A stretch of 57,735 nt of DNA from Candidatus Brockarchaeota archaeon (lineage in GTDB: Archaea; Thermoproteota; EX4484-205; JAAOZP01), in NCBI GenBank assembly GCA_017601395.1, contig JAFNIQ010000004.1:1-57735 (forward strand). Direction: 5' to 3'. A program made the translations under genes and the position numbers. Positions 8,678 through 35,764 of this stretch are shown in pieces (position 1 is the first letter of the stretch; every line of letters starts with the position of its first letter). The notes under the pieces were generated by a model, which saw only the letters and a list, made by a program, of their open reading frames with translations, was not told the DNA's origin and made no database searches.

Positions 8678-9802
8678 TCACAGCTTACGGGTGAAAACAA
8701 TATACTCGTCAGCATAGCCGATCTTAACAACCCGGTCCCTGGTTGCAACCCTCCTGTTAACCAGCCAGAGCCTCTCGGTTTCGAACCCAATCTCCTCAGC
8801 CATTTCAACGAATATTTTCTCTGTTTCAACAACGCCCGTCGGGAAAACTCCTTGAGCTATGACGAAAACACCCTTCCCGTTCTTTTTGAGAACACGGTGT
8901 AGCTCAGACAGAACCCGGCGTAGATCCTGAAAATAGGCTTCAACTATCGCAGGCATGTTCCCAATGTTTCCAGGACCCTCGGCGAGCCTAACCGCATCGC
9001 CTATGTATGAGCGCAGCATGGGTTCAGAGCCCTTGAAGAAAAGCTCGTTTTCAACGCTGTAAACCCTAGTGTACTCTATCTTGTTCAAATAAGGTGGTGA
9101 AGTGATGACTGCGTCGAACATCTCGTCCTCGAGGAACCCTAGGTTTCTCGAGTCAGCCTTGAAAGTCGCCACCTTAGGGTTAAGCATCCTTGTGGCTTCA
9201 ACATCCTTAATCATCCTCCTAATCCTGTTCCTGTAGAACTTTCTGAAAGGCGGGGCGCTCCTCTCCTTAACTATTCTAAGGAGGCCGCCGTCCTTCACCA
9301 CGTAGGATGCTTTCATGGCGGCGCTTATCAAGCCGAGTTTGAAGAAGCCTCTCGCAGCCTCGTCCTCAATGTTTTCAACGATCTCTCTGAAGAACAGCAC
9401 GTCCTCCAGAACATGCCTCGGAAAGGCTCTTCTAACAAGCCTGCTTAACCCACCTAGGCTGGGCCTCCTGAACTTTTCCGAGAAAACTTTTTCAGAAACC
9501 CTCCGGAGCTGCTCAACATCGTAGTTGGCAGTCTTAACCTTGGAGGCGAAAACAGGTAGCTCAGCCACGTCGACGCCGACACTGTTTATCCCAAGCTCCT
9601 TCCCTGTAAGCTGGGTTGTGCCGACGCCGCAGAACGGGTCCAGCACCCAGGAGTCTTCTCCAAGCCCGAGCTGCCTAGCCATAAGGACTACGAAGTCGCG
9701 GGAAAAAGCCTCCTTGTAATAGAACCAGTTGTGTATCGGAATATGCTTGTTAGGTATGAATGTGACAAGCCTCCCGAGTTCCAGCCTCTCTTCAACCATC
9801 AT
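8678..9802 (-). CDS. SAM-dependent amino-methyltransferase, probably DNA N4-cytosine/N6-adenine (SPPY motif)
   Basis: SAM motif I VLDPFCGVGTT and catalytic motif IV VITSPPY about 170 aa downstream. No recognisable restriction endonuclease lies next to it. Confidence 0.7.
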   Translation of the reverse strand: MMVEERLELGRLVTFIPNKHIPIHNWFYYKEAFSRDFVVLMARQLGLGEDSWVLDPFCGVGTTQLTGKELGINSVGVDVAELPVFASKVKTANYDVEQLRRVSEKVFSEKFRRPSLGGLSRLVRRAFPRHVLEDVLFFREIVENIEDEAARGFFKLGLISAAMKASYVVKDGGLLRIVKERSAPPFRKFYRNRIRRMIKDVEATRMLNPKVATFKADSRNLGFLEDEMFDAVITSPPYLNKIEYTRVYSVENELFFKGSEPMLRSYIGDAVRLAEGPGNIGNMPAIVEAYFQDLRRVLSELHRVLKKNGKGVFVIAQGVFPTGVVETEKIFVEMAEEIGFETERLWLVNRRVATRDRVVKIGYADEYIVFTRKL

Positions 9803-17525: not shown

Positions 17526-17600
17526 TGCGGCGCCCGGGATTTGAACCCGGGATTCCCAGCTTGGAAGGCTGGTGTCCTAACCAGGCTAGACCAGCGCCGC
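17526..17600 (-). tRNA. tRNA-Gly (anticodon UCC)
   Basis: Reverse complement GCGGCGCTGGTCTAGCCTGGTTAGGACACCAGCCTTCCAAGCTGGGAATCCCGGGTTCAAATCCCGGGCGCCGCA. Anticodon stem CCAGC/GCTGG with loop CTTCCAA. Regular D and T arms. Confidence 0.92.
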
Positions 17601-17644
17601 GGGTACCGGAGTTAGAACAGGCTGGATGGTTAAAAGTTTTATCC
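17601..17644 (-). promoter_or_regulatory. tRNA-Gly promoter block, identical to 688..731
   Basis: The same 44 nt as upstream of tRNA-Gly(CCC). Identity stops exactly at 17644, where the cassette ORF stop codon begins. Confidence 0.6.
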
Positions 17645-18549
17645 TACTTTTTCCGTTCATCTATCATTCTTATCAGTTGAAGCTTCTCCATGTGCTCCGG
17701 CTTCCTAGAGCCTATTTCCTCTATGAATTTCAGGTGGTCCTCTGCAGGAATAGTAAAACTATGTAGATCGCGCCATCCTGGTTTCCTATGATCTGTGCGA
17801 ATCTCATGAGGATGAAATCCTAAGTCTATGAACATCTGTCTTACTTCTTCCAACCCCTCTTTGTATGTTGAGTAGATGCGAATACTATGAGCACGTTCTC
17901 CTGTCATGGAGATATTTCCGTCGCCAGAGAAGAAACCTCTTAAGTATGCCCTTTTCCCTTCTTCGTCTAAATGGGCTACAGGCGGATGAAATTCAAAGTC
18001 CTCTGGCCCCTTAATGCCCAGATTTGCTAAATCGTAAGCTATCTTCTTGCTATATATCCTTGGCTTATGGTAGGCTTTCTCTCCTTCTCCCGTGTCTTCA
18101 AAACGGATATAATCGCGGGCAGTTTCATGGTAGACCTCTCTAATTAAGTTAATGAAAAGTTCAGCGAGTTCCTTATCCTCACTATCGAAATAAACCTCAT
18201 ATACGCTTTTCTCACTATTAATGTAAATTCCACCGTCAGAGGCTATTAAACCGCATAACTCTGCCTTTTCTGGAGTAAGTATTTCCCTAACTTTTCCATC
18301 TAAAAATTCCAAACTCATTCCTTTACTCAGCTTAAAAACAATCCTGCCTCCTTCAACCTTGGCTTCAGAAAAGATTCCGATAACTTTACCTTCTTTAAGT
18401 AGTTCATATCCACCGCCTTCTGCTTCGCGAACCTCGTATCTCTCAAAGGTTCTTAAGACATGAAAGGACTCTTCTTCTCCTTTCCCTCGTACTTGCTCTC
18501 CCTCAAAGAATCTCCTTTCATACTGCTTAACCCTAGAGCCTCCGCCCAT
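17644..18549 (-). CDS. double-motif LAGLIDADG endonuclease-like protein with ~95-aa N-terminal extension
   Basis: Two LAGLIDADG motifs (LCGLIASDGGIY and YLRGFFSGDGNIS) about 110 aa apart. The C-terminal FIEEIGSRK..KL is typical of the family. The ATG directly abuts the stop of the upstream gene (TAAATG). Confidence 0.75.
   Translation of the reverse strand: MGGGSRVKQYERRFFEGEQVRGKGEEESFHVLRTFERYEVREAEGGGYELLKEGKVIGIFSEAKVEGGRIVFKLSKGMSLEFLDGKVREILTPEKAELCGLIASDGGIYINSEKSVYEVYFDSEDKELAELFINLIREVYHETARDYIRFEDTGEGEKAYHKPRIYSKKIAYDLANLGIKGPEDFEFHPPVAHLDEEGKRAYLRGFFSGDGNISMTGERAHSIRIYSTYKEGLEEVRQMFIDLGFHPHEIRTDHRKPGWRDLHSFTIPAEDHLKFIEEIGSRKPEHMEKLQLIRMIDERKK
17652..17704. repeat. left copy of the 53-bp direct repeat
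   Basis: TCCGTTCATCTATCATTCTTATCAGTTGAAGCTTCTCCATGTGCTCCGGCTTC, identical to 20558-20610. It encodes the C-terminal ..PEHMEKLQLIRMIDE of the LAGLIDADG ORF. Confidence 0.95.
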
Positions 18550-19647
18550 TTATCTTCCTCTCGTTAAAGCTCTATTCATGTCGAGCAGGTTGTGGAGAGC
18601 AAGTGTCTTGAGCCCCAGCTCCTTATCACTTAACATCAGATCGATCAATTCCTGTGGCATCATCCCTCTACATGCTTCGCAAGTACACTCCTCGAATCTG
18701 ATTTCCGGATCTTTGAAGTTGTACAATTTTCCTCCTTTAAAGTAATGTCCTTGTTTTGCTTCTAGAAACCAAGAAAGATTGCTGTAGCTACCTATCTCCC
18801 TGTACTTAAGCCTGCGGCCGATACCGTAGAGCAGCAATTCGAAATCCGTTCTAGTCCTCTTAGAAAACCACTTCAGGCTCATCAGGGCGCTGGGCAAAAG
18901 GTCACCCAGGAGATTGTCTTCGAAAAGCTCCCTCGCGGGCATCGCGAAGGAAACGTAGCCCATTTCAACCTGCTTCCTAATAGCCCAATCTATTTGAAGA
19001 TGGTTGGCGCCCTTGATTAAGCCGATTAACGGGATGTCAAGCTTGAGGAAGTCGTTTGCGAGGGAAACGAGCCTTACGGTTTGAGACCATGATAGAAAAA
19101 GTGGGTCATCCACGTAAGTATAGTTATCCGGAATCATTGTAGCATCCGGCCCAAGGTTTTTAACCAGCCTGAAATAATCCTTAAACCTAAGATTATCGAG
19201 AAGTTCGTCGGGCATCACTAATGAAAGGAAAATCCTTCCATTAAACCCTAGGAAGTCATGTAAGCCTTTTAAGGAAACTTCTTCAAGGAGGGTTTTGTCA
19301 ACCAAAAGCTGCCAAAGAGGAACAAATATTTCTGGCAATTCTACGCCATGTCTCCAGAACCATGACTTTTTATCACTAATATCGATTTGAGGGATGAATC
19401 TTTCGAAACCGATTTTGGTCATCAACTTTTTGCTTAATGAAGACATTTGCACAAAGGATCTATTCGCTGTTTTAATCGGGCAATAAGGCTGGAGTCTGCA
19501 GAAAGACTTGGGATAGGTTATTCCAGTATATTGGAAACCTCTCTGGCATTGTGCTACGAGGCACATTTTGAAAGAGCAACCGCGGCAGAGCTTATGAAAA
19601 TACGGACATTCCTCGCAATAAAAGCCGCACCATCCTTTTCTGGGCAA
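18550..19647 (-). CDS. tRNA-guanine-transglycosylase (TGT) superfamily protein, DpdA-like, with N-terminal Cys cluster
   Basis: The C-terminal CTCEAC-x25-H(NL) matches the TGT zinc site CxCxxC-x25-H exactly. It is preceded by SNLSWFLEAKQGHYF, resembling the TGT substrate-pocket strand. The N-terminus carries CGFYCEEC..C..C..C..C. Confidence 0.6.
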   Translation of the reverse strand: MPRKGWCGFYCEECPYFHKLCRGCSFKMCLVAQCQRGFQYTGITYPKSFCRLQPYCPIKTANRSFVQMSSLSKKLMTKIGFERFIPQIDISDKKSWFWRHGVELPEIFVPLWQLLVDKTLLEEVSLKGLHDFLGFNGRIFLSLVMPDELLDNLRFKDYFRLVKNLGPDATMIPDNYTYVDDPLFLSWSQTVRLVSLANDFLKLDIPLIGLIKGANHLQIDWAIRKQVEMGYVSFAMPARELFEDNLLGDLLPSALMSLKWFSKRTRTDFELLLYGIGRRLKYREIGSYSNLSWFLEAKQGHYFKGGKLYNFKDPEIRFEECTCEACRGMMPQELIDLMLSDKELGLKTLALHNLLDMNRALTRGR

Positions 19648-21367: not shown

Positions 21368-22390
21368 ATGGTTAGGAGGAAAACAGGGGAAGAGAGCGAA
21401 GAGGAATCTAGGGAAGTGGAAGTTTTCGAATCAATAGAGGACATACCAGGTATAGGTCCCTCTACTGCCGCTAAGCTCAAGGAGCTGGGTTACACTACTG
21501 TTGAAGCATTGGCGACGGCTACTGTAAACGAGCTTGTAAGCGGGGGCATTCCTGATAAGACCGCCGCCAAGATAATATCGCTGGCGAGAAGCAGTATTGA
21601 GGTTAAATTCGTTTCAGCTCTAGACATTCTTAAGCAGCGGGAGCACATTCAGAAGCTCACCACGGGGAGTAAGAAGCTGGATGCTCTCCTAGGAGGAGGG
21701 CTGGAGACAATGACGATAACAGAGTTCTTCGGGGAGTATGGGACAGGGAAGTCCCAGATAAGCCATCAGCTTGCTGTTAATGTTCAGCTGCCTGTGGAGA
21801 GAGGGGGTTTAAACGGAAACGTTGTTTACATCGATACTGAAAACAGTTTCAGGCCTGAGCGCATTGTCGCAATGGCTAAGTATCTGAAGCTGGATCCGAT
21901 TAAGACTGTTGAAAACATCACTGTGGCTGAAGCCTTTAACTCGGACCATCAGATACTCATAGCTGAACGTCTCGATGAAATCATTAAGAGTAAGAGGGTG
22001 AAGCTCGTCATAGTCGACTCCCTGACGACCCACTTCAGAAGCGAATACTTAGGCAGGGAGAGCCTTGTTAAAAGACAGCAGAAGCTGAACGCCCATCTTC
22101 ACAGGCTTGAGCGTCTTTCTAAAGCCTTCAACCTTGTGATCGTTGTCACCAACCAGGTTATGGCTAAGCCTGACGAGATCTTCGGAATGGGGGCGTATCC
22201 TGTTGGAGGCCACATTCTTGCGCACAGGAGCCACACGAGAATATACCTGCGTAAGGCTAGGGGTGAACAGGGTTTAAGAGTCGCCAGACTGATAGTTAGC
22301 CTGGACAGGCCTGAGGGAGAATGCCTGTTTAAAATCACTGAGAACGGTATAACTGACGTTGAGGAAGAAGCCTACGATGAAGAGGACTAG
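21368..22390 (+). CDS. radA: DNA repair and recombination protein RadA
   Basis: N-terminal HhH (IEDIPGIGPSTAAKLKELGY), Walker A GEYGTGKSQ and Walker B KLVIVDS. Confidence 0.93.
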   Translation: MVRRKTGEESEEESREVEVFESIEDIPGIGPSTAAKLKELGYTTVEALATATVNELVSGGIPDKTAAKIISLARSSIEVKFVSALDILKQREHIQKLTTGSKKLDALLGGGLETMTITEFFGEYGTGKSQISHQLAVNVQLPVERGGLNGNVVYIDTENSFRPERIVAMAKYLKLDPIKTVENITVAEAFNSDHQILIAERLDEIIKSKRVKLVIVDSLTTHFRSEYLGRESLVKRQQKLNAHLHRLERLSKAFNLVIVVTNQVMAKPDEIFGMGAYPVGGHILAHRSHTRIYLRKARGEQGLRVARLIVSLDRPEGECLFKITENGITDVEEEAYDEED

Positions 22391-27180: not shown

Positions 27181-28164
27181 ATGGCTACTTTTATTGCTCT
27201 GCTAATAGTATTTCTAGAAATGAAGCAGGAAACTGTTCAGCCACTTGCCTCCGTAAAATGTCCAAACTGTAAATCCCAGTTGGTTAACTCGGGGAACGAA
27301 CTTGTCTGCAGCAGGTGTGGCCTAGTGGTCGACTTCATAGACAAGTACGTCGCATCTTATGATCAGGAGCACGCGTTTCATGGGGACTCCTGCTACGGGA
27401 GTCTGATTGCGGAACGCGGTTTCGAAAATGGTGTCTCTAAGCTTCAGAGGAACATTTTCTACTCGGCCACTAGGAAGGAGAACGAGCTGAAATGGATAAT
27501 AGACAAGGTCTGTAGCTATTTTCACCTAGGGTCTTCGATAAGGCTGTTTTCTCACAGTATTGGTTTAACGCTGCTGCGTAATTCTAAAAGTAGAAAGATC
27601 AACTTGGCGGCGGTTGCAACATACTCTGTAGTCAGCGCAGCAAGATCCTGCAGTTTTAACATAGTTCCACATTATAAGAAAATACAGGCGTACTTGTGCA
27701 GCATAGGTTTTAAAATACGGCCGAGAGACCTGTTTAACGTGATTTCTATTGCAAGGAGGGTTGGGATTGTGGAAGCAAAATATGATGCTGGTAAAACAAT
27801 CAACGAAATAATATCTCTTGTGATGAGGAATAACCGCAAGCTTCAGTCACTCGCTGAAAGAGAAATGTTTCTAAATATTCTTAGGTCGATGTCAATCAGG
27901 CTCTTCAACGATTTAAAATCTAAGCATTACTATTTCCATGGTAAAAACCCCATGATATGTTTAGCAGCAGCCATCTATGCGGCGTCAAGGGAGGCTGCCG
28001 CCATGTTGAAAATAAAAAATCCCGTGACCCAGAGGGAGCTGGCTGGATACGTTGGGTATGCTGAGTATAGCGTTAGAGAAACATATGAAGAGTTTTTCGG
28101 AAAACCGTCTCAACCCGTTGAACCCTCATCTAAAGTAGAATCCTGCCGTTTAACAGTGCTGTAA
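27181..28164 (+). CDS. divergent transcription initiation factor B (TFB) paralogue
   Basis: Zinc ribbon CPNC..x..CSRCG and cyclin-like repeats (AAAIYAASREAA..VTQRELAGYVGYAEYSVRETYEEF). The B-reader/linker region is poorly conserved. The start could be ATG 27220 (MKQETV). Confidence 0.7.
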   Translation: MATFIALLIVFLEMKQETVQPLASVKCPNCKSQLVNSGNELVCSRCGLVVDFIDKYVASYDQEHAFHGDSCYGSLIAERGFENGVSKLQRNIFYSATRKENELKWIIDKVCSYFHLGSSIRLFSHSIGLTLLRNSKSRKINLAAVATYSVVSAARSCSFNIVPHYKKIQAYLCSIGFKIRPRDLFNVISIARRVGIVEAKYDAGKTINEIISLVMRNNRKLQSLAEREMFLNILRSMSIRLFNDLKSKHYYFHGKNPMICLAAAIYAASREAAAMLKIKNPVTQRELAGYVGYAEYSVRETYEEFFGKPSQPVEPSSKVESCRLTVL

Positions 28165-28577
28165 ACACGTTCAAACTCGAAGAAGCCTTCTAGGTCGCTC
28201 ACGCGAATCCTGCACTCGATCTCTACTAAAAACTCTTCCTCACGGGATTCAATAGTGTAGTCAAACTGGACAAGTATTCCGCACTCTTTGAAAAATTCTT
28301 CATAAAGGTTTTCCGTTTTAAAGCGTTCAATCTTGTCCATTAGGGTTTTCTTTAACTCGGAGAAATTTCCTTGGGAAGAACTCATACTTGCTTCTGTAAT
28401 GTTCTCCAAGCTGCTGAAAATATCTTTTACCAGGGAATCGGCTAAAACAAGCTTCGCTCTCTGTTTTAAAAAGCCTAACAGAAGGGTGCTTCCAGACTGG
28501 ACCATTAGGTTCGCTATCAAAAGTGAAGCCATAATGATTGTTGAGGCGACTATAGGTATCATCCACGTTTTAATCAT
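28110..28577 (-). CDS. small protein with N-terminal hydrophobic anchor (pilin/pseudopilin-like)
   Basis: 155 aa with N-terminus MIKTWMIPIVASTIIMASLLIANL. Overlaps the upstream ORF by 4 nt. Last gene of the minus-strand pilin-like operon. Confidence 0.5.
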   Translation of the reverse strand: MIKTWMIPIVASTIIMASLLIANLMVQSGSTLLLGFLKQRAKLVLADSLVKDIFSSLENITEASMSSSQGNFSELKKTLMDKIERFKTENLYEEFFKECGILVQFDYTIESREEEFLVEIECRIRVSDLEGFFEFERVYSTVKRQDSTLDEGSTG

Positions 28578-28957
28578 TTCTCGACGCTCACCGCTATGCT
28601 CACAACATCTTCGCTGCTGACTCTGATTATTCGAACAAGCCTAGTATGGTGTTCGCCAGGATTGCCTGAGGCCTGCTTATTCTCCACTATTATTCTTCCA
28701 TTCTGCTTGCTCAGAAGCTCTATTTTGCTCCACTTAACCCTGTTAGAGCTCAGGATCCTGGTGACTTCGCTGAGCAGGGCCTCAGAATCGGCCAGAGTTT
28801 GACGAGGGATCTTTGCGAGGCTGATCTCTAAAGCCAAGTCTATGTTTATTACCTCTATTTTTTCAAACACGGTTCTGATGCTTTGCGAGACAGTTATTAT
28901 CGGTATTAACAGGAGAGTGCTCAGGACGATTGCAATGACACCCTCTAAAAACTGCAT
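28574..28957 (-). CDS. small protein with N-terminal hydrophobic anchor (pilin-like)
   Basis: 127 aa. The N-terminus MQFLEGVIAIVLSTLLLIPI resembles Flp/class III-type mature N-termini. Confidence 0.5.
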   Translation of the reverse strand: MQFLEGVIAIVLSTLLLIPIITVSQSIRTVFEKIEVINIDLALEISLAKIPRQTLADSEALLSEVTRILSSNRVKWSKIELLSKQNGRIIVENKQASGNPGEHHTRLVRIIRVSSEDVVSIAVSVEK

Positions 28958-28963
28958 TCTTCT

Positions 28964-29095
28964 TCACGCTTGTTCAGCCAGCCAGGTTAAGGTGGAAACA
29001 TTGCTTAAGGTGAGAATAAGAGCCAACGCTAATTCTAAGACTAGTAGAAAAATCAGGAATGATGATGCTAGGAAATCTAGAAGCTTGTCGCTCAT
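28964..29095 (-). CDS. 43-aa hydrophobic micro-protein (not in ORF track)
   Basis: MSDKLLDFLASSFLIFLLVLELALALILTLSNVSTLTWLAEQA. Its ATG overlaps the stop of the upstream ORF (ATGA). Its stop lies 6 nt before the next ATG. Confidence 0.45.
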   Translation of the reverse strand: MSDKLLDFLASSFLIFLLVLELALALILTLSNVSTLTWLAEQA

Positions 29096-29472
29096 CGTTT
29101 GGTTAAAACAAACCCGTTCTCCGATGTTTTCACGGAGTATGTTCCACCCGGCTCTATTGGCACGCTGTTAAACCTGTATTCCCAGGCTCCGTGGAAGACC
29201 CGAATCCCGTGAATCATGATGGAGTATTCATTATCATTAAGCAGGATTGAATAGTTGAATAAAGGTGTTTCTGGCATAGATAGGGTGAATTCCCCGCCAT
29301 ACTCTGCTGAAAGATCAGCGTGTTTACCTATTAAAAACAGGATGTTGTTAAAAACCTTGTTTAAGAAAACTGTTCTAACAGTATCTGTGGCATGAAGCAA
29401 TGTAAAGCTTACTACGAGTGTTAAAGATATCCAGAGAGCGTCTTTCAAATGTTCCTCAAGAATCTCGTTCAA
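29092..29472 (-). CDS. small protein with N-terminal hydrophobic anchor (pilin-like)
   Basis: 126 aa with hydrophobic segment ALWISLTLVVSFTLL near the N-terminus. Part of a tightly packed operon. Confidence 0.5.
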   Translation of the reverse strand: MNEILEEHLKDALWISLTLVVSFTLLHATDTVRTVFLNKVFNNILFLIGKHADLSAEYGGEFTLSMPETPLFNYSILLNDNEYSIMIHGIRVFHGAWEYRFNSVPIEPGGTYSVKTSENGFVLTKR

Positions 29473-29483
29473 GCTGTTTCACC

Positions 29484-29627
29484 CTAGCTTGCAGTAAGCA
29501 GTTTAGCCACGCCCTCATAAATCTGCTTAATCATAGGTATGACTCGCTCCAATAAGTAGGCTAAGCCTAGTCCAAGAAGTACTGCAGAGAGCAGTATTAC
29601 CAGGGTTTTCTCAAGCAGGCTGCTCAT
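29484..29627 (-). CDS. 47-aa helix-loop-helix hydrophobic micro-protein (not in ORF track)
   Basis: MSSLLEKTLVILLSAVLLGLGLAYLLERVIPMIKQIYEGVAKLLTAS. A strong SD (AGGAGGGATA) lies 5 nt upstream of the ATG. First gene of the minus-strand operon. Confidence 0.5.
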   Translation of the reverse strand: MSSLLEKTLVILLSAVLLGLGLAYLLERVIPMIKQIYEGVAKLLTAS

Positions 29628-29762
29628 AGGTATCCCTCCTCTTAAGCCGCCCAGCCTTCACACGCATTTTCCAATCCCAAGTTTATCAGCGTCCTAAGCC
29701 TTATAACCGCCAACGTGGTCAGTATTGGTGAATAAATAGGTTTCCACTATTCTGGTTTATGG

Positions 29763-29912
29763 ATGATCTTCCAAGACGACCTGCTGGTTAACGCAATACT
29801 TCAGGAGATAGAGGATTTGAAGGTGAACATAGGGAAGTTGAACACTAGAATTTTAAACCTTGAGAAAAAGTATCGGGAGTTAACTGAGCTCCTAAAGGTT
29901 GCTTCAAAATGA
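29763..29912 (+). CDS. 49-aa coiled-coil micro-protein (not in ORF track)
   Basis: MIFQDDLLVNAILQEIEDLKVNIGKLNTRILNLEKKYRELTELLKVASK. Its stop overlaps the ATPase start (ATGA). Confidence 0.4.
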   Translation: MIFQDDLLVNAILQEIEDLKVNIGKLNTRILNLEKKYRELTELLKVASK

Positions 29913-31789
29913 GCAGCATCCAACAGGGTTTCCTCTATGCCGGTTTTGAAAGGAAATGGGCTTGGGACAGTAGGGGTAGAACCTTGTTCCTGTCATATCC
30001 GGAATCCCGGGAAACGGATCCATGGCTTATCTGCGACATTATGCATAAGCTCACGTATTTCAAGCCGGAGAGAATCCTGATACGTGTTAAGGAACGTTTG
30101 CTCGAAGTCCGAGAGCAATATGTCGGGCTGTTACAGGATCTCTCTAGAGAGATCGAGAAGGAGAAGGAAGAGCTTTACAAAAGACTTTTGGAGAAGCGTG
30201 AGGAGAATAGCCTTGGCTTAAACTCTATTCGAGGAATTCTTTCCATAAGGCCATTCTATGGAAGCGTATATTCTAAGCCGTTACTACGGCTTCCCGCATC
30301 TGTCAAGCTTTTCTCCGAACGCGGGCTCCAGGAATTTGAAGGGGTTTTTCAAGGCTCGTGGCTGGCTGAACACAGCTATGTGCTTGGCCACCTGTTGTAC
30401 TGTGTGAATGCTAAAGACGGTTACTATAGGGTTTTTTTCAAGTCTGACGATTACTTCTGGATTGAGAAGGAGCTTTCAAAAATTCTGCGCCTAGCCTACT
30501 CTAAGAGAATGCTTAGAACCGGCAGGTTTAAAGACATATTTAGCTACAGGTTTAAAGCCGGCTTAAGGTTTCTGAAGGTGTTAGCGCAGTTGGAAGCTGC
30601 GGAGCCGGTGGGCTCCATAGTTAAGCATGCCGTGTACTCTTCCATAGGATTGTCGAAAATATATCCCTTGTTGAACGATAGCGGTGTGCAGTGTTTCTTC
30701 TTGGATGATGTTGGGAGGAGGATTTACGTTGACCATGCTCGTTTCGGAAGGCTTAGTACAAACCTCGTGTTTAAAGAAAGGGATTTTGAAAGCCTTGTGT
30801 CGCTCGTGAAAAGAGAATCCGGCTTAAACCTGGATTACTCTAACCCCTCGATTAAAACCGCTATTGTCTTCGACAGGGTTTTGACAAGGGTTTCAATAGA
30901 TATTCCTCCCCTAGCGTTAGGGAAAGGCGTTTTAGACGTGCGGAAACATGTGGCGAACGTGCTTCACCTCAGAGTCCTTTTAGGATCAGGATATTTTTCA
31001 GTTGAGGCTGCTGCTTTCCTAATCTTCGCCATTCTAAACCGTGCCAACATCTCTATCGTGGGGGAGCCGAATTCTGGGAAAACTTCTCTTCTAAACTTTC
31101 TAAGCTATTTTGCTCCCTCATGGTGGCGCATAGTACACGTTGAGGATGCTCTTGAAACGCTTCCCCCAAGGGTCTTCGACCAGCATAGAGTAGTGTACAT
31201 TGTGGAGCCATTTGAAACTAAGGGGAGAAGCGACACTAAGACGCTTGAAATAGTTAAGGCTCTTCACAGGACTCCCTCCTACCTTATACTTGGTGAAGTT
31301 CAGACCGGGAGCCACGTTAAAGCAATGTTCCGCGCAGTCTCAGCCGGCCTGAGAATAATGCATACTGCGCACGCCGCTTCCGGCAGGGGCTTCGTTAAAA
31401 GGCTTGTAGACGTTTACAATATCCCTAGGATACTGCTTTCTGAGCTTGATCTGATAATAGTTATGAAGAGGCTTGAGGCAAATAATTTTGTTAAACGGTT
31501 TATTGGGGAAATAGCTGTTATAGATGGAGATTCAAACCTTATCGAAATATTTTCGAGGCGTACCGTTACAGACGAGTTATGCTGCTACCTTGGGCTAGAG
31601 TCCTCAGGGTTTTTCGGGAAACTAGCTGGTTTAAGCTGCATAGATGAGAAAAATCTTCAGGAGGAGTATGAAGCCATCTTGAAAATGGTTGAAGAAAACC
31701 GTTTTTCAGATAATTTCACCGTTAAAAGGCTTGTCCAAAAAATCCATGTGGAAACACTTGGGAAGACTGGGGGTGGGTTTCAAAAGTGA
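29909..31789 (+). CDS. PilB/FlaI/VirB11-class secretion ATPase with ~380-aa N-terminal extension
   Basis: Walker A GEPNSGKTSLLN, Asp box IVHVEDALE, Walker B YLILGEVQ and His box MHTAHAAS. Confidence 0.8.
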   Translation: MSSIQQGFLYAGFERKWAWDSRGRTLFLSYPESRETDPWLICDIMHKLTYFKPERILIRVKERLLEVREQYVGLLQDLSREIEKEKEELYKRLLEKREENSLGLNSIRGILSIRPFYGSVYSKPLLRLPASVKLFSERGLQEFEGVFQGSWLAEHSYVLGHLLYCVNAKDGYYRVFFKSDDYFWIEKELSKILRLAYSKRMLRTGRFKDIFSYRFKAGLRFLKVLAQLEAAEPVGSIVKHAVYSSIGLSKIYPLLNDSGVQCFFLDDVGRRIYVDHARFGRLSTNLVFKERDFESLVSLVKRESGLNLDYSNPSIKTAIVFDRVLTRVSIDIPPLALGKGVLDVRKHVANVLHLRVLLGSGYFSVEAAAFLIFAILNRANISIVGEPNSGKTSLLNFLSYFAPSWWRIVHVEDALETLPPRVFDQHRVVYIVEPFETKGRSDTKTLEIVKALHRTPSYLILGEVQTGSHVKAMFRAVSAGLRIMHTAHAASGRGFVKRLVDVYNIPRILLSELDLIIVMKRLEANNFVKRFIGEIAVIDGDSNLIEIFSRRTVTDELCCYLGLESSGFFGKLAGLSCIDEKNLQEEYEAILKMVEENRFSDNFTVKRLVQKIHVETLGKTGGGFQK

Positions 31790-32352
31790 TCTTTCAAAGG
31801 CTTTTAAGGAGAATTTTTAACGATGACGATAGGCATGCTTATGAAGTAATAACTCCAATCGTAGCTGAAATAATAATAGCCAAATCTGCATACAACAATT
31901 TTTACAGGGCTATTCGCGACGTTTCAAGTAAAAACTATGAGGGTGTTTCCACAGCCTTGTGTTATTGTCTTGAACAGGGTCTGAACGGTATGGATATTCA
32001 GAGAGCGTTGAACAAGGCTCTCCGGAAACACCCTGATCTTCTGAATGCGATTACTCATGTGGTTCAAAACACTCCTGGGCAGAGAGTCGATCCAGAGAAG
32101 ACGCTAATGCTGTTCAGAATCCTTGAGTCGAAAGCCAGGATGAAATACCATGAGTACACGTTAAAGCTTAACTCTATAATTTCCTTATTCTTCTTCTACG
32201 TGTTTCTTGTCCCAACACCAATAATATTGGCCTCAGGGTTTTCACCAGAGACTTCAACAATCCTGTTTTCAGTATTCTTTATCATAAGCATCATGGTTTT
32301 CACCATCTTCTTCAATAAGATCGGAAGGATTAGGAGTGTCCTGCTAGGTTGA
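31786..32352 (+). CDS. membrane protein, probable split TadB/TadC/FlaJ-like platform component (part 1)
   Basis: 188 aa with a soluble helical N-terminus and C-terminal hydrophobic helices. GTG start overlaps the ATPase stop by 4 nt. Confidence 0.5.
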   Translation: MIFQRLLRRIFNDDDRHAYEVITPIVAEIIIAKSAYNNFYRAIRDVSSKNYEGVSTALCYCLEQGLNGMDIQRALNKALRKHPDLLNAITHVVQNTPGQRVDPEKTLMLFRILESKARMKYHEYTLKLNSIISLFFFYVFLVPTPIILASGFSPETSTILFSVFFIISIMVFTIFFNKIGRIRSVLLG

Positions 32353-33143
32353 GGCAAACAACCTTTTCCCTAGTAATGGGGCTCGGGGCGCTCGCCTTTT
32401 TAATGCCTGTGTTAAAGCTTAAACCGTATGTTGCATTCTCAATCCAGCTCTTAGTCTACACGCTAATACTGTCTCAGAGAGGGGAAAGCGGTGCCGAAAA
32501 CCTTTCGGAGACCGTTGACTTAACACTAGTAGGAAGGTTGGCAGATAACCCTGAAAACTTGAACCTGGAAAGCTCAGTTTTCAAAACACTGTCGGATTTA
32601 GATTTTGAAACTGGTTTCCGTGATCTTTTCGAAAAGGCTGTGCGCCGCAGCGTAAATGGGCACCCGTTAGAGAAAACTTTAATCTCCTATTCCGGTGAAC
32701 TTGGCCAAACAGGCAGGCTTCTAATCAGGCTTGCTTCAAGCCTTTTCGCCAAAGATGCTGTATCCGCCAAAAAGATCCTGAAAAGCTATGTGATCCTTCT
32801 CAGGGAAAACGAGGCTTTGAAGAATGAGAGAAAAACACTGTTTTCAGAAGCCAGGTTCAGGGCTAGAATAATGCTTACAGTAAGCTCCTCCTTAATGGGT
32901 TTCCTCTCGGCTGCAACTCCTGTTCTAAACGCTTTCTCAGCTTTTTCAGCCACACCCGTTTTACAGAGTGATTCCTCGCTGCTTCTTTCCCTCATCCTAT
33001 ACGTGTTAAGCATATCTATACTTGTCCACCGCTCCCTGGCCTTTAGGAATCTCGCTAAAACAATTCTTTACTCAGCGTTAAGCTTCGCAGTCTCATTCCT
33101 AGTTTTTAACAGCATGATCGGCGGCTTGGTAAGTCAACGGTGA
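32349..33143 (+). CDS. membrane protein, probable split TadB/TadC/FlaJ-like platform component (part 2)
   Basis: 264 aa with N- and C-terminal TM helices flanking a soluble helical domain. 4-nt overlaps on both sides. Confidence 0.5.
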   Translation: MRQTTFSLVMGLGALAFLMPVLKLKPYVAFSIQLLVYTLILSQRGESGAENLSETVDLTLVGRLADNPENLNLESSVFKTLSDLDFETGFRDLFEKAVRRSVNGHPLEKTLISYSGELGQTGRLLIRLASSLFAKDAVSAKKILKSYVILLRENEALKNERKTLFSEARFRARIMLTVSSSLMGFLSAATPVLNAFSAFSATPVLQSDSSLLLSLILYVLSISILVHRSLAFRNLAKTILYSALSFAVSFLVFNSMIGGLVSQR

Positions 33144-33391
33144 AGCCATTGGTGCTTAAATTGTTTAAGAACACTGTAATAATTGGGTTGAAGAAGATCT
33201 TGAAAACTAGGTTAAAAGGATCGCAGCTCATAGAGGAGGGTCTGCTTATAGTGTTGGCCCTAGTCATGCTTGGAGCCGTCTTCGGGGTTTCAAAGCAAAT
33301 CGTGGACAACATATCTGGGTTCTTCAACTCTCTAATAGAGGAAGTGGGCAAACTGGGTGAAAGCCTGTTCGGCTGGCTGCTGCCTAAATAA
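33140..33391 (+). CDS. Flp/class III signal peptide-type pilin candidate
   Basis: 83 aa with a basic leader ..KTRLKG followed by SQLIEEGLLIVLALVMLGAVF. This resembles the G/xxxxE[YE] Flp and archaeal prepilin cleavage context. Confidence 0.55.
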   Translation: MKPLVLKLFKNTVIIGLKKILKTRLKGSQLIEEGLLIVLALVMLGAVFGVSKQIVDNISGFFNSLIEEVGKLGESLFGWLLPK

Positions 33392-35244
33392 TGGCTGACG
33401 ACAATAATAGGATGTTTGATCCGGTATACGTGGCCGTAATCATCATACTGCTGATAAACGTTCTGAAAAACTTTTCAAGCCTCCAGTTTTTTCCAAGCAT
33501 TTCCTCACCTGCGGGCGGCCTCTACATAATGATGCTTCTGCTCCCCGTTGCGCTTCTCCTGCTTTACAAGCGGCCAAGCCTAGTTGAACATTTGGCCTTC
33601 AGGGAAAACGAAGACTACTTAATTGCGAAAACGGGTTCGTCAGAGCTCGTGGTGGGAGCAGTTTCAATACTTCCGGAGGAGGGATCAGGAAGAATCGTGG
33701 AAGAGGAAGACTTCTACTTGAAGACCAAGGGCCTTTTTAACGGGATTCTTAAAGCAGGCATTTCAATAACATTTGTGTCTCATATACTTCCCTCGGGGAA
33801 CTCTGATGATGTTCTTCTCGCCCAGCTGCTCGTGGTCAGCAGAAAAATAGGGCGTGGAGGAGTTGATGAGGCGGTGAAGATGCTTGGAACAGATTTTGAA
33901 AAGATAAGGTCTGTCTACAACACGGTTTTCCCAGAGTTAAAACTCGTCAGGCTAAGGGGGAAAGAGCTGATTAAATACTTGAGAAGGATCTTGGTGGATG
34001 ATTCTGTTACTAAGCGGGTTGACGCAGATAGCTCTATCAAGATTCTTACACCACACATGCCTGATGACGAGCTCTGTTTTCTCTCATCCTCCTACAGGCC
34101 CTCCACCGATACCGTTGAGACCAAGGAGACTATAGACCTTGGGTCGATCGTTTTTAACGGTTCAAGCATCATGCCGCTTAGGCTTGAGGCAGATAAGTTC
34201 AAGAAGCATATGGCTGTCTACGGCTCAACGGGCTCCGGTAAGACGACAACTGTGAAACATGTTTTAAGGAAGCTTGCTGGGCTCGGGTATCCTTTCATGG
34301 TTTTAGACTGGCATAATGAGTATAGGCCTCTGGCTGAGGAGCTTAACGGCGTTGTTTTCACATTAGGCTCCTTCTCCTTGGATATACTTAACCCTGTTGA
34401 GGCTAGCAACCTATCCGAGCACGTAGCAATAGTCACAGATATTTTCGACCAGATATACGGCTTCACCCCCTCCCAATCATACATGTTTAGAGAAGTGCTT
34501 CTGCAAACGCTCACGGAGAAAGAGCTCGGAATACCCGCTTCAAACTCCCTCAGGGGGCTTGTAGAGGCTTTGGAGAGATGGAGCATTAAATCGTTCTATG
34601 AGAACGAGACAAAGTTCGCACTTCTAAGAAGACTGAAGCCGTTGGTAACCGGGCAGAGTAGAGAAATATTCTGTAACACGAGTAGGCTGGTGAAGATTGG
34701 TGACATTATAGATAGGAACGTGGTTTTCGAGCTGGGTGACATTGTTGAAGTGGATATTCGCAAGCTGGTTTCACTCTTCATCCTCGCGCTCCTCTACGAG
34801 TTCAGGGTGAAAAACAAGAGCGCTAGGAACCACTTTACTGTTGTTGAGGAGGCGCATAACATTCTGCCATATAGGAGGCGTGACTCCCCACCGGGGATTG
34901 CTGAAAAGCTTTTCTTAGAGATGAGAAAGTTTAACGAGAGCCTTATACTCGTGTCACAGTTTCCATCGCAAATCTCTCCTGAAATAGTCAAGTCCACAAG
35001 CCTGAAGATATCCCACAGGATATGCGAGGGAGAGGAGTCAAGGGTTCTGACAGACATAATGGGTCTTTCCCAGGGGGACTATGAGCTTCTAAAGAAACAG
35101 ACACCGGGATACGGTTTCTTAACGGCGGAGGGCTTTTCTAAACCTGTTCTTTTCACCATAGGGATTAACGGAAGAGGAAGCCCATTTTCCCAGGGTTCTT
35201 CAGAAGGAAGTCAACCCAGTCAACCATGTCACCCCTACACCTGA
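33391..35244 (+). CDS. membrane-anchored VirB4/HerA-class (DUF87-type) ATPase
   Basis: Two N-terminal TM helices, Walker A YGSTGSGKTTT and Walker B TVVEEAHN. The start shares one nucleotide with the pilin stop (TAATG). Confidence 0.7.
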   Translation: MADDNNRMFDPVYVAVIIILLINVLKNFSSLQFFPSISSPAGGLYIMMLLLPVALLLLYKRPSLVEHLAFRENEDYLIAKTGSSELVVGAVSILPEEGSGRIVEEEDFYLKTKGLFNGILKAGISITFVSHILPSGNSDDVLLAQLLVVSRKIGRGGVDEAVKMLGTDFEKIRSVYNTVFPELKLVRLRGKELIKYLRRILVDDSVTKRVDADSSIKILTPHMPDDELCFLSSSYRPSTDTVETKETIDLGSIVFNGSSIMPLRLEADKFKKHMAVYGSTGSGKTTTVKHVLRKLAGLGYPFMVLDWHNEYRPLAEELNGVVFTLGSFSLDILNPVEASNLSEHVAIVTDIFDQIYGFTPSQSYMFREVLLQTLTEKELGIPASNSLRGLVEALERWSIKSFYENETKFALLRRLKPLVTGQSREIFCNTSRLVKIGDIIDRNVVFELGDIVEVDIRKLVSLFILALLYEFRVKNKSARNHFTVVEEAHNILPYRRRDSPPGIAEKLFLEMRKFNESLILVSQFPSQISPEIVKSTSLKISHRICEGEESRVLTDIMGLSQGDYELLKKQTPGYGFLTAEGFSKPVLFTIGINGRGSPFSQGSSEGSQPSQPCHPYT

Positions 35245-35764
35245 ATCCCCCTCTATAACACTCCATAAAACGGGTGTAGGTTTTTCCAACACTAATACCG
35301 GTTGTGTCCAGCTGCACGATTCTCTTACCTTTTAAATGGAGCTTCGCCATTAGATAGCAGTAGTCCGTAATCTCTGATTCAACGTTCATCTTCGCCTTAT
35401 CCTCACCGTATCTCTTAATACTTCTAAGCCTGCGCCAGAGAACGTCTGGCCTACATCTTAAGACGAGACAGTAGTCGACATGCTTTACCGGGGAAACCTC
35501 AGCCGCGTAATGCCCATCTATCAGTAGGCGAATTCCTTCTCCAGCACTGTTTGAAACATATTTTAGCAGAGCCTTTTTCAAAATACTCGTGTTGATAATA
35601 TTGGTCTCCAGCGAATCGTCATACCCGGTGATCGCGTTAACCTCAACTGCGAACCTGCCAAGATCCAAGTGAACCCAGCCTTTATTCTCTCTGACAATCC
35701 GTCTGCACAAGGAGGTCTTGCCGGTTCCAGGAGTTCCTGTTACAACTATTACCTTGCTTTTCAT
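35165..35764 (-). CDS. Fap7/adenylate kinase 6-like P-loop NTPase
   Basis: VIVVTGTPGTGKTS, IDGHY and LVLRCRPDVLWRRL..NVESEI follow the Fap7/AK6 pattern. The 3' end overlaps the convergent ATPase gene by 80 nt. Confidence 0.65.
   Translation of the reverse strand: MKSKVIVVTGTPGTGKTSLCRRIVRENKGWVHLDLGRFAVEVNAITGYDDSLETNIINTSILKKALLKYVSNSAGEGIRLLIDGHYAAEVSPVKHVDYCLVLRCRPDVLWRRLRSIKRYGEDKAKMNVESEITDYCYLMAKLHLKGKRIVQLDTTGISVGKTYTRFMECYRGGFRCRGDMVDWVDFLLKNPGKMGFLFR

Follow-up and report, generated by a model that had tools for sequence, protein, structure and literature searches.

A CedD-like ATPase gene at the end of a Tad/Flp-type pilus operon: a candidate DNA-uptake locus in Brockarchaeota and other archaea

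The 57,735-nt stretch of Candidatus Brockarchaeota DNA analysed here (the window; contig JAFNIQ010000004.1 of assembly GCA_017601395.1) comes from what we take to be an uncultured hot-spring archaeon. At 28110-35244 it carries a divergent gene cluster in which genes for a type IV filament machine of the Tad/Flp style are followed, in the same operon, by the gene for a CedD-like ATPase. CedD-family ATPases proved to be far more widespread than reported, and in most lineages they are encoded by the terminal gene of such a pilus operon, which has a transcription factor B (TFB) paralogue of its own. The parts are of known kinds; what is new is the operon layout, its wide distribution outside of the Crenarchaeota and the associated TFB paralogue. 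This combination is undescribed in the CedD papers, the Ced/Ted paper, the archaeal type IV pilus (T4P) census and the literature returned by full-text searches. The reading proposed here, to which we give about an even chance, is that the locus may be a chromosomally fixed, Tad/Flp-style type IV filament machine for DNA uptake or exchange with a CedD-like terminal ATPase.

The identities of the components, the structure of the operon and their conservation can be read from the window and its relatives. ORF (open reading frame) calling recovered all 11 of the ORFs listed in the first-pass annotation of this DNA at their coordinates and sizes, six on the plus strand (p1-p6) and five on the minus strand (m1-m5). 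The plus-strand genes overlap, in order, by 4, 4, 4, 4 and 1 nt, the last being the TAATG shared by p5 and p6, as expected from the 1-4 nt overlaps described in that annotation. It had also placed two ATPase classes within one operon, and both are there, as p2 and p6. The protein classes that it named stand as well. One is a PilB/FlaI-class ATPase, for which Pfam T2SSE gives 41.9 bits where the cutoff is 24.9; the others are membrane proteins that resemble a platform, a prepilin of the Flp-like kind and an ATPase of the HerA/VirB4 class with a membrane anchor. The gene unit reaches further upstream than had been noted, to the TFB paralogue at 27181-28164 (+).

The terminal gene p6 (33391-35244, +) encodes a protein of 617 aa, and CedD is its best family match by far. 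The NCBIfam CedD model (NF053655) gives 185.9 bits (E 1e-54), which is a lead of more than 130 bits over the runner-up. The next-best NCBIfam models are HerA (HerA_Thermprot) with 48.7 bits against a cutoff of 800 and VirB4-type models with at most 38 bits; VirB4_CagE reaches 25.6 bits against a cutoff of 643, and CedB has no match. Pfam DUF87 scores 59.1 bits. These scores point to a membrane-anchored HerA/VirB4-class ATPase of the CedD type and not to CedB, HerA or VirB4 itself. A grouping of this protein with cytosolic HerA/NurA helicases, which the first-pass annotation had named as a refutation of its reading, does not hold (HerA 49 bits, CedD 186), and the earlier comparison with CedB gives way to CedD. 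Hydropathy and an AlphaFold 2 (AF2) model place transmembrane (TM) helices at about residues 11-26 and 40-59, followed by an alpha/beta domain (65-200), a disordered linker, the ATPase domain (247-590) and a disordered tail. The Walker A (GSTGSGKTT) and Walker B (VVEEAH) motifs are intact. A Foldseek search with the AF2 model returned S. solfataricus HerA (4d2i, E 5e-17) and the C-terminal domain of VirB4 (4ag5, E 2e-15, TMt 0.74). The architecture agrees with the one described for CedD, an N-terminal TM anchor, an N-terminal domain and a C-terminal HerA/VirB4-like ATPase (PMC11868833). CedD was also the top NCBIfam match for 10 of 10 diverse relatives tested (136-254 bits), in which HerA scored 37-90 bits and CedB scored in two proteins only, with 40-50 bits.

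Two side observations concern this gene. In loci L042, L068 and L074 the pilin gene and a shortened CedD-like gene are set apart by an additional ORF of 0.8-1.1 kb; the one in L042 encodes a 323-aa protein with 2 TM helices, and in these loci the TM/N-terminal part of CedD may have been split off as a gene of its own. The 3' end of p6, which encodes the disordered tail, overlaps the convergent Fap7/adenylate-kinase-like gene (35165-35764, -) by 80 nt (35165-35244), and this CedD/kinase pairing is kept in 74 of 81 loci, Desulfurococcales among them.

CedD (Saci_0667/SiRe_1715) is a membrane-bound ATPase of the FtsK/HerA superfamily without which S. acidocaldarius and Sa. islandicus cannot import DNA (PMC11823120, PMC11868833, both 2025). 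In Sulfolobus it is induced by UV through TFB3 (PMC11823120, PMC11868833, PMC6101591). It has been read as VirD4-like in one of the 2025 papers and as half of a VirB4 in the other, in both cases as a component of a T4SS-like machine, and it has been reported in Sulfolobales, Desulfurococcales, Acidilobales, Thermoproteales (as TedD) and Thermofilales (PMC11823120, PMC11868833). Neither of these two papers mentions a link to type IV pilus genes or an occurrence outside of the Crenarchaeota.

A scan of one genome per GTDB species found 80 loci, which span Brockarchaeota, Nitrososphaerales, Nitrosopumilales, Conexivisphaerales, Geothermarchaeota, Bathyarchaeia, Methanomethylicota, uncultured Thermoprotei and Desulfurococcales. 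The nearest relatives are Brockarchaeota-related metagenome-assembled genomes (MAGs), with p6 identities of 96% in a CALIBN01 MAG and 88% in Brockarchaeota DRTY-6.bins.80. Iterative hidden Markov model (HMM) searches covered all ORFs of the loci found, and neighbouring genes were counted in the 59 species-representative loci with at least 5.2 kb of upstream DNA. A secretion ATPase gene lies upstream of the CedD-like gene on the same strand in 53 of these, a pilin gene lies immediately upstream in 55, and a TFB-like gene is found about 6 kb upstream in 50. Since the arrangement recurs in 53 of 59 species-representative genomes, it is far beyond chance, and the adjacency of the 617-aa ATPase to pilus genes that had been seen in the window holds for its relatives. 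The distance from the pilin stop codon to the CedD-like start codon is at most 20 nt in 59 of 68 loci (median 3 nt), which argues for co-transcription over mere synteny. The two ATPase classes had been described as fused in a hybrid locus; they do occur together, but the linkage is old and spans several classes, so it is not a recent fusion.

The locus also occupies a fixed place in the chromosome. The order of genes in the window is beta-CASP, PAC2, Lsm, TFB-like, m1-m5, p1-p6 (on the other strand), Fap7-like kinase, tRNA-Glu, MFS transporter, thermosome and S17e, and this order recurs in a Brockarchaeota MAG (p6 identity 60%) and in a 1.38-Mb contig (34%). Desulfurococcales MAGs have PAC2, a tgt-like gene, Lsm, Rpo8, CedD, Fap7-like kinase, thermosome and S17e, and no pilus genes. 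In Sulfolobales, a membrane HerA-like ATPase that belongs to the SSO0283 family lies beside a thermosome subunit and S17e (PMC2948915), and Sso0282 is tf55 (PMC2858796). The tfb3 gene of S. solfataricus (SSO0280) is three locus tags from SSO0283. Saci_0665, 0666 and 0667 are presumably tfb3, thsB and cedD. Since the order Lsm, CedD, Fap7-like kinase, thermosome and S17e is shared, with other genes between Lsm and CedD, p6 is located at the cedD position. It is the positional orthologue of CedD, and the locus lies in a fixed, vertically inherited housekeeping block.

The gene upstream of p6, p5 (33140-33391, +), is an 83-aa ORF predicted to encode a Flp-type prepilin with a class III signal. 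In the locus alignment the pilin ORF of the relatives is 60-70 aa long, and an in-frame TTG at 33188 gives a 67-aa protein beginning MKKILKTRLKG↓SQLIEE… (the arrow marks the predicted cleavage), which is the more likely start. The 4-nt overlap between p4 and p5 is therefore possibly not real. Motif inspection gives the prepilin signal …KTRLKG↓SQLIEEGLLIVLALV, with cleavage between Gly (33218-33220) and Ser (33221-33223), which would leave about 56 aa in the mature protein and put Glu at positions 5 and 6. The pattern [KR][GA]↓[SVA]QL[IV]EE[GA]LL, after a basic leader and before a hydrophobic helix, occurs in 68 of 68 aligned loci. The expectation that the small ORFs would have prepilin features is thus borne out for p5; for the minus-strand ORFs it is plausible and unproven. 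p5 is the best-conserved small protein of the locus, with 53-71% identity where the two ATPases have 34-41%. As a separate observation, the coiled-coil gene of nine related loci has a divergent neighbour whose 190-aa product contains 5-6 TM helices and the motifs ED… and GFAD (L004 5768-6355(-), L023 5239-5829(-) and seven other loci; there is no copy in the window). Pfam A24 matches this protein at E 0.03 only; a diverged A24 prepilin peptidase is possible, but the candidate is weak.

The gene p2 (29909-31789, +; 626 aa) is predicted to encode a type IV filament assembly ATPase of the PilB/FlaI/TadA family, in the FlaI/GspE/CpaF class. Besides the T2SSE match, the NCBIfam models FlaI, TadA and VirB11 give 94, 59 and 46 bits, all far under the equivalog cutoffs (250 for VirB11). 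The sequence matches in the PDB are Archaeoglobus GspE (2oap, E 6e-23), FlaI (4ii7, E 1e-21) and CpaF (E 9e-14). The translation has a Walker A motif, GEPNSGKTS. The N-terminal region of about 220 aa is extra and without a match; the orthologues bear the precomputed Pfam tag PF27713 'UCP018868'.

The next two genes are assigned, with moderate support, to a diverged TadB/TadC-like (T2SSF) platform that is split into two half-platform paralogues. By hydropathy, p3 (31786-32352, +; 188 aa) and p4 (32349-33143, +; 264 aa) both show a helical domain in the cytoplasm with two TM helices after it, and in p4 this domain is preceded by an N-terminal TM segment. The profiles of the two families align with each other with a probability of 83.7% (hhalign, E 8e-6), which is consistent with paralogy. 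T2SSF matches the window proteins at E 0.69 (p3) and 0.035 (p4); both scores, one of 14.5 and one of 10.3 bits, are below the cutoff of 25.2. It is the sole Pfam family to recur among the p4 orthologues (5 of 34, best E 3e-6), and the L003 orthologue has a weak precomputed T2SSF match. The p4-family profile reached GspF among the PDB sequences at E 0.43 only. The first gene of the operon, p1 (29763-29912, +), encodes a 49-aa coiled-coil protein that was found by HMM in 21 loci; other lineages have analogous small coiled-coil ORFs before the ATPase gene.

The TFB/TFIIB paralogue (27181-28164, +; likely start ATG 27220) is full length in the family alignment, with a Zn ribbon (CxxC…CxxCG) and two cyclin-like repeats. 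Its Pfam scores are slightly below the cutoffs (Zn_Ribbon_TF 27.7 bits, TFIIB 21 bits), and orthologues in L028 (26.4 bits) and L071 (30.5 bits) exceed the TFIIB cutoff. TFB3 is a truncated TFB, which has a Zn ribbon, no B-finger and an abbreviated core (PMC2246294). A profile of 16 TFB-like proteins, searched against a set of 5.8 billion proteins, returned members of the family and a few canonical TFBs only, and no Sulfolobales TFB3; therefore, the link between the TFB paralogue and TFB3 is positional only.

The divergent intergenic region is 135 bp long. Cross-locus alignment identified in it a block at 29700-29738, CTTATAA-CCGCCAAC-N8-TATTGGTG-AATAAATA, in which two TATA-like boxes stand on either side of a palindrome (CACCAAT…ATTGGTG). 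The block is kept in 14 orthologous loci whose proteins have drifted as far as about 50% identity. From the second TATA box to the p1 ATG downstream of it, the distance is about 28 nt. The position of the two boxes around the palindrome suggests back-to-back promoters under one operator, and the block is probably a putative shared operator for both divergent operons. No regulon of this operator was found in the window, where the pattern CCAAY-N7-10-ATTGG has 2 matches against 0.74 expected, a count equalled in 21 of 100 shuffles. ANTTTC is the DNA-damage promoter motif of Sulfolobus. It was considered as a conserved element and rejected: the divergent intergenic region has one copy, and the motif is on the plus strand in 6 of 14 Brockarchaeota-clade loci, which is about half of the orthologous regions. 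A scan for sigma-70 promoters and terminators carries no meaning for an archaeon.

The gap between the TFB-like gene and the secretion ATPase gene holds three to five minus-strand ORFs in every lineage, and the hydrophobic helix of their products begins within the first few residues. In the clade of the window, the alignment of m1-m5 is conserved from Met1 on. m5 (29484-29627, -; 47 aa) is a mini-protein, Flp-like and leaderless, and its gene has a GGAGGG Shine-Dalgarno sequence in front. The N-terminus of the protein, MS[SN]LLEK… in the clade and MSSLLEKTLVILLS… in the window, resembles the mature end of p5, and orthologues were found in 17 loci. m4 (29092-29472, -; 126 aa) has a conserved N-terminus (MNEILEEHLKD), a TM helix and a beta-rich domain, with orthologues in 21 loci that include uncultured Thermoprotei and other lineages. 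m3 (28964-29095, -) encodes a 43-aa hydrophobic mini-protein (MSDKLLDF…), whose MSDKLL… start is kept in 14 loci of the Brockarchaeota-related clade. m2 (28574-28957, -; 127 aa) is a candidate pilin-like protein, leaderless, with the N-terminus M[QE]FLEG… (MQFLEG in the window) and an invariant Glu5. m1 (28110-28577, -; 155 aa), a candidate minor pilin or accessory membrane protein with orthologues in 14 loci, has an N-terminal TM helix (MIKTW…) and a domain of about 120 aa. The start of m5 and that of m2 resemble mature type IV pilin N-termini without a leader, and the small minus-strand proteins may be 'leaderless' pilin-like proteins that have no need for a prepilin peptidase. The AF2 model of m2 (predicted local distance difference test score, pLDDT, of 78) has a helix of 47 residues (2-48), a second helix (58-71) and a four-stranded sheet. 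A pilin fold for m2 was tried and dropped, as Foldseek against the PDB gave insignificant uS3 matches only (E at least 0.013) and no pilins; the pilin identity of the m proteins is therefore a hypothesis.

The DNA-uptake reading would have these parts work together as follows. The dedicated TFB paralogue, acting with the palindromic operator between the back-to-back promoters, would turn on both divergent operons. An A24 peptidase would cut the prepilin after …RLKG, and p2, p3 and p4 would assemble the pilin of 56 aa into a short filament, either a pilus or a pseudopilus, that passes through the S-layer and contacts a partner cell or DNA. A hexamer of the CedD-like ATPase, held beside the platform by its two TM helices, would pump DNA across the membrane, and the imported DNA would serve recombinational repair or gene acquisition. 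That DNA is the substrate, which way it would move and how the genes would be regulated are inferred; for DNA uptake, this draws on the genetics of CedD in Sulfolobus and on the dependence of Sulfolobus DNA exchange on both a type IV pilus and Ced. Bacterial precedents add support. Natural transformation dependent on a Flp pilus is reported in PMC4322843, and transjugation in Thermus involves a T4P and the HerA-like ATPases TdtA and HepA, as cited in PMC11868833.

Several results weigh against the DNA-uptake reading. Pfam and NCBIfam gave no homologue of CedA, CedB, VirB6 or VirB2 in the locus, and no DNA-binding receptor, nuclease or ComEC-type channel. There is also no A24 prepilin peptidase in the locus, and none of the ORFs in the whole 57.7 kb was matched by an HMM of the A24-like family. 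The CedD score of p6 does not reach the equivalog cutoff of 600 bits, and the match is confined to the ATPase domain (profile positions 188-525). In favour of the reading, on this point, the proteins at the CedD position of Desulfurococcales MAGs also score just 228-252 bits against this cutoff, and the pilus-linked Thermoprotei protein of L069 scores as high (254 bits) as these proteins from a pilus-less context. A crude neighbour-joining (NJ) tree puts the pilus-linked proteins in a clade of their own, apart from the pilus-less Desulfurococcales proteins; therefore, the function could have diverged. In this tree the pilus-less proteins form a basal grade beside a long bacterial outgroup. Its rooting is unreliable, and it does not decide between an ancestral and a derived pilus link (loss or gain). 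The platform assignment of p3 and p4 draws on weak T2SSF matches, and Foldseek gave no confirmation of the pilin-like nature of m1-m5. The conservation of p5 is so high as to be unusual for a surface-exposed pilin, which could point to an interaction under tight constraint or to a pseudopilus that stays buried. Finally, the entire neighbourhood is syntenic, including unrelated housekeeping genes, so adjacency alone is weak evidence for a functional link.

The alternative that survives best is a filament that does not move DNA. It is possible, though we find it doubtful, that the locus builds an adhesion, aggregation or surface pilus, or a pseudopilus for secretion or uptake of something other than DNA, and that the CedD-like ATPase serves this filament in retraction, pilin extraction or protein translocation. 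The locus has every part of a type IV filament machine and nothing that is specific for DNA, and both the separate clade of the pilus-linked ATPases in the NJ tree and the extreme conservation of the pilin, as in a buried pseudopilus, fit such a function. Archaea are without PilT according to arCOG (PMC4858521), so that a retraction motor is missing. However, the closest characterised relative of the ATPase, CedD, is a DNA-import factor, and its structural neighbours are DNA translocases (HerA) and VirB4. We know of no HerA/VirB4-class ATPase that drives pilus dynamics, which also counts against this alternative.

It is unlikely that the same machine acts on the donor side or in both directions, with the CedD-like ATPase exporting DNA, as TdtA does in Thermus, and the pilus making the mating contact. 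Saci_0667 was once proposed to be in an export machine (PMC6101591), the export ATPase of Sulfolobus is still unknown (PMC11868833), and Wu et al. cite TdtA and HepA as HerA-like exporters of Thermus. Against this, both genetic studies put CedD in import, with CedD being 'only essential for DNA import', and all recombinants from ΔcedD×ΔupsE matings carried cedD (PMC11823120).

Also improbable is that the pilus genes and the CedD-like gene are functionally unrelated and have stayed neighbours through frozen synteny alone. Lsm, PAC2, beta-CASP, the Fap7-like kinase and the thermosome hold their positions equally well, and Desulfurococcales retain CedD without the pilus genes. However, the pilin gene sits immediately upstream of the CedD-like gene, on the same strand, and the stop and start codons overlap or nearly abut in 59 of the 68 loci. 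Moreover, L058 and L070 keep the pilin with the CedD-like gene though the secretion ATPase is absent or located elsewhere.

Two further readings are effectively excluded, namely that the locus was left behind by a conjugative or integrated mobile element, and that p6 is a cytosolic repair helicase of the HerA/NurA type which lies beside pilus genes by chance: the slightly lower G+C of the locus and its weak matches to TraG P-loop, VirB4 and TraC models are set against an identical chromosomal position across classes, housekeeping flanks, two N-terminal TM helices in p6, a HerA score far under its cutoff and a locus without NurA, Mre11 or Rad50 neighbours. Pfam and NCBIfam found no integrase, relaxase, VirB2 or VirB6 in the locus, and tblastn against 72,556 plasmids gave remote bacterial DUF87 proteins only (25-27% identity) and no close plasmid relatives. 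With the vertical inheritance of the housekeeping block and no archaeal plasmid relatives, the suggestion in the first-pass annotation of a conjugation-like remnant is not supported.

Among known systems, the Ced and Ups systems of Sulfolobales and Desulfurococcales share with this locus the CedD-type ATPase with an N-terminal membrane anchor, the position beside thermosome and S17e genes, a TFB paralogue nearby and the pairing of a type IV pilus with a CedD-type ATPase. In contrast, ups, cedA/A1/A2, cedB and cedD are scattered in Sulfolobus, whereas the pilus genes and the CedD-like gene are here in one operon. This locus has no CedA (VirB6-like), CedA1/A2 (VirB2-like) or CedB; its pilin is a 56-aa Flp pilin and not UpsA/B, and its TFB has two cyclin repeats and the full length, where TFB3 is truncated. 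The Ted system of Thermoproteales (TedA/B/C and TedD) is similar in that a CedD-type ATPase is clustered with genes of a DNA-exchange pilus. There the pilus is VirB2-like (TedC) and is built by VirB4/VirB6 homologues, whereas the filament genes here are of the Tad/Flp kind. The layout differs from the published Ups, Ced and Ted loci, as had been thought from the window alone.

The filament genes are closest in kind to Tad/Flp and archaeal Epd-like pili. Tad is thought to derive from archaeal Epd-like pili. The CpaF/TadA-class ATPase, a T2SSF platform split in two (TadB, TadC; putative in this locus) and the very small Flp-type pilin (G↓xxxxE(E/Y)G) are common to both, and the divergently encoded small pilin-like proteins resemble TadE and TadF. 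Unlike Tad, this archaeal locus has no secretin or outer-membrane parts, as expected, and it has an extra HerA/VirB4-class ATPase as its last component; the minor pilin candidates are leaderless, and p2 has the extra N-terminal region of about 220 aa. Bacterial competence, with a ComG/T4P pseudopilus and a translocase, and Thermus transjugation follow the same logic of a type IV filament joined to a membrane ATP-driven DNA translocase. They differ in that the translocase here is a CedD-type HerA/VirB4 protein, not ComFA/ComEC, and in that the function here is only deduced. No ComEA- or ComEC-like parts were found in the locus.

Makarova, Koonin & Albers (2016) described a subclade 4D in Pyrobaculum and Thermoproteus, whose loci next to RPB8/Rpo8 encode a TFIIB homologue along with a diverged secretion ATPase and a membrane protein that has 4-5 TM helices. 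The pairing of a diverged secretion ATPase and a small polytopic membrane protein with a dedicated TFIIB homologue is shared with the present locus. By its description, subclade 4D differs in having reportedly no pilins, no HerA-like ATPase and a single-cyclin TFIIB. Rpo8 adjoins CedD in the related loci L077 and L081, and subclade 4D may be a reduced form of the pilus/CedD-like/TFB unit. L077 (8298-11293) has no pilus genes, and its genes for Rpo8, for a TFB-like protein of 241 aa that lacks a Zn ribbon, and for CedD directly adjoin each other; it looks like an intermediate layout that bridges the window, the tfb3/cedD area of Sulfolobus and the RPB8-TFIIB subclade 4D. The same census (Table S4) includes a FlaI-family ATPase gene divergently adjacent to a gene for a 634-aa 'HerA helicase' (arCOG00280) in Cenarchaeum symbiosum (NC_014820, 635182-639097); a small ORF with 2 TM helices lies between them, and this layout is unlike that of the window.

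We tentatively suggest, as a possibility that we favour less than a role in DNA uptake as such, that CedD did not arise within a T4SS-like Ced machine but was originally the translocase of an ancient, TACK-wide, competence-like apparatus that had a Flp-type pseudopilus and a TFB paralogue in one locus. The Sulfolobus trio of TFB3, Ups and CedD would then be its dispersed remainder, and a machine for DNA uptake would be encoded in the chromosomes of ammonia-oxidising Nitrososphaerales, Bathyarchaeia, Brockarchaeota and Methanomethylicota. To our knowledge, archaeal DNA exchange is understood only in Sulfolobales (Ups and Ced) and, structurally, in Aeropyrum and Pyrobaculum. If the DNA-uptake reading is true, the locus is a candidate natural DNA-uptake system in large groups that are uncultured or hard to manipulate, soil ammonia oxidisers included, and it gives a concrete gene set for competence testing and hence for the development of genetic tools. 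It would also reframe the origin of the Ced, Ups and TFB3 modules of Sulfolobus. Archaeal DNA uptake thereby becomes testable in many lineages. If the machine does not transport DNA, this would be the first case in which a motor of the HerA/VirB4 class serves a type IV filament exclusively.

The rest of the window is chromosomal, with ilvB, ilvD, argH, leuA, leuC, radA, aspS, ABCE1, argS, POR genes and four tRNAs. The locus had been called AT-rich, which holds only mildly: its G+C is 44.8% against 48.1% for the window, it ranks 14th lowest among 203 windows of the same size, and the 17-21 kb stretch of the window is equally low. That stretch (42-44% G+C) contains, at 17526-19647, a tRNA-Gly(TCC) followed by an ORF with a LAGLIDADG domain (17644-18549, -) and a 365-aa ORF without a Pfam match (18550-19647, -), and it may be related to an intron or homing endonuclease or be an integrated element. 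The gene for the recombinase RadA (21368-22390; 282 bits with Pfam Rad51) is some 5 kb upstream of that for the TFB paralogue, with aspS, beta-CASP, PAC2 and Lsm between, and its nearness to the locus is probably coincidental synteny. A gene for an N6/N4 DNA methyltransferase is located at 8678-9802 amid amino-acid biosynthesis genes, and a similar gene is found in the Brockarchaeota locus L001.

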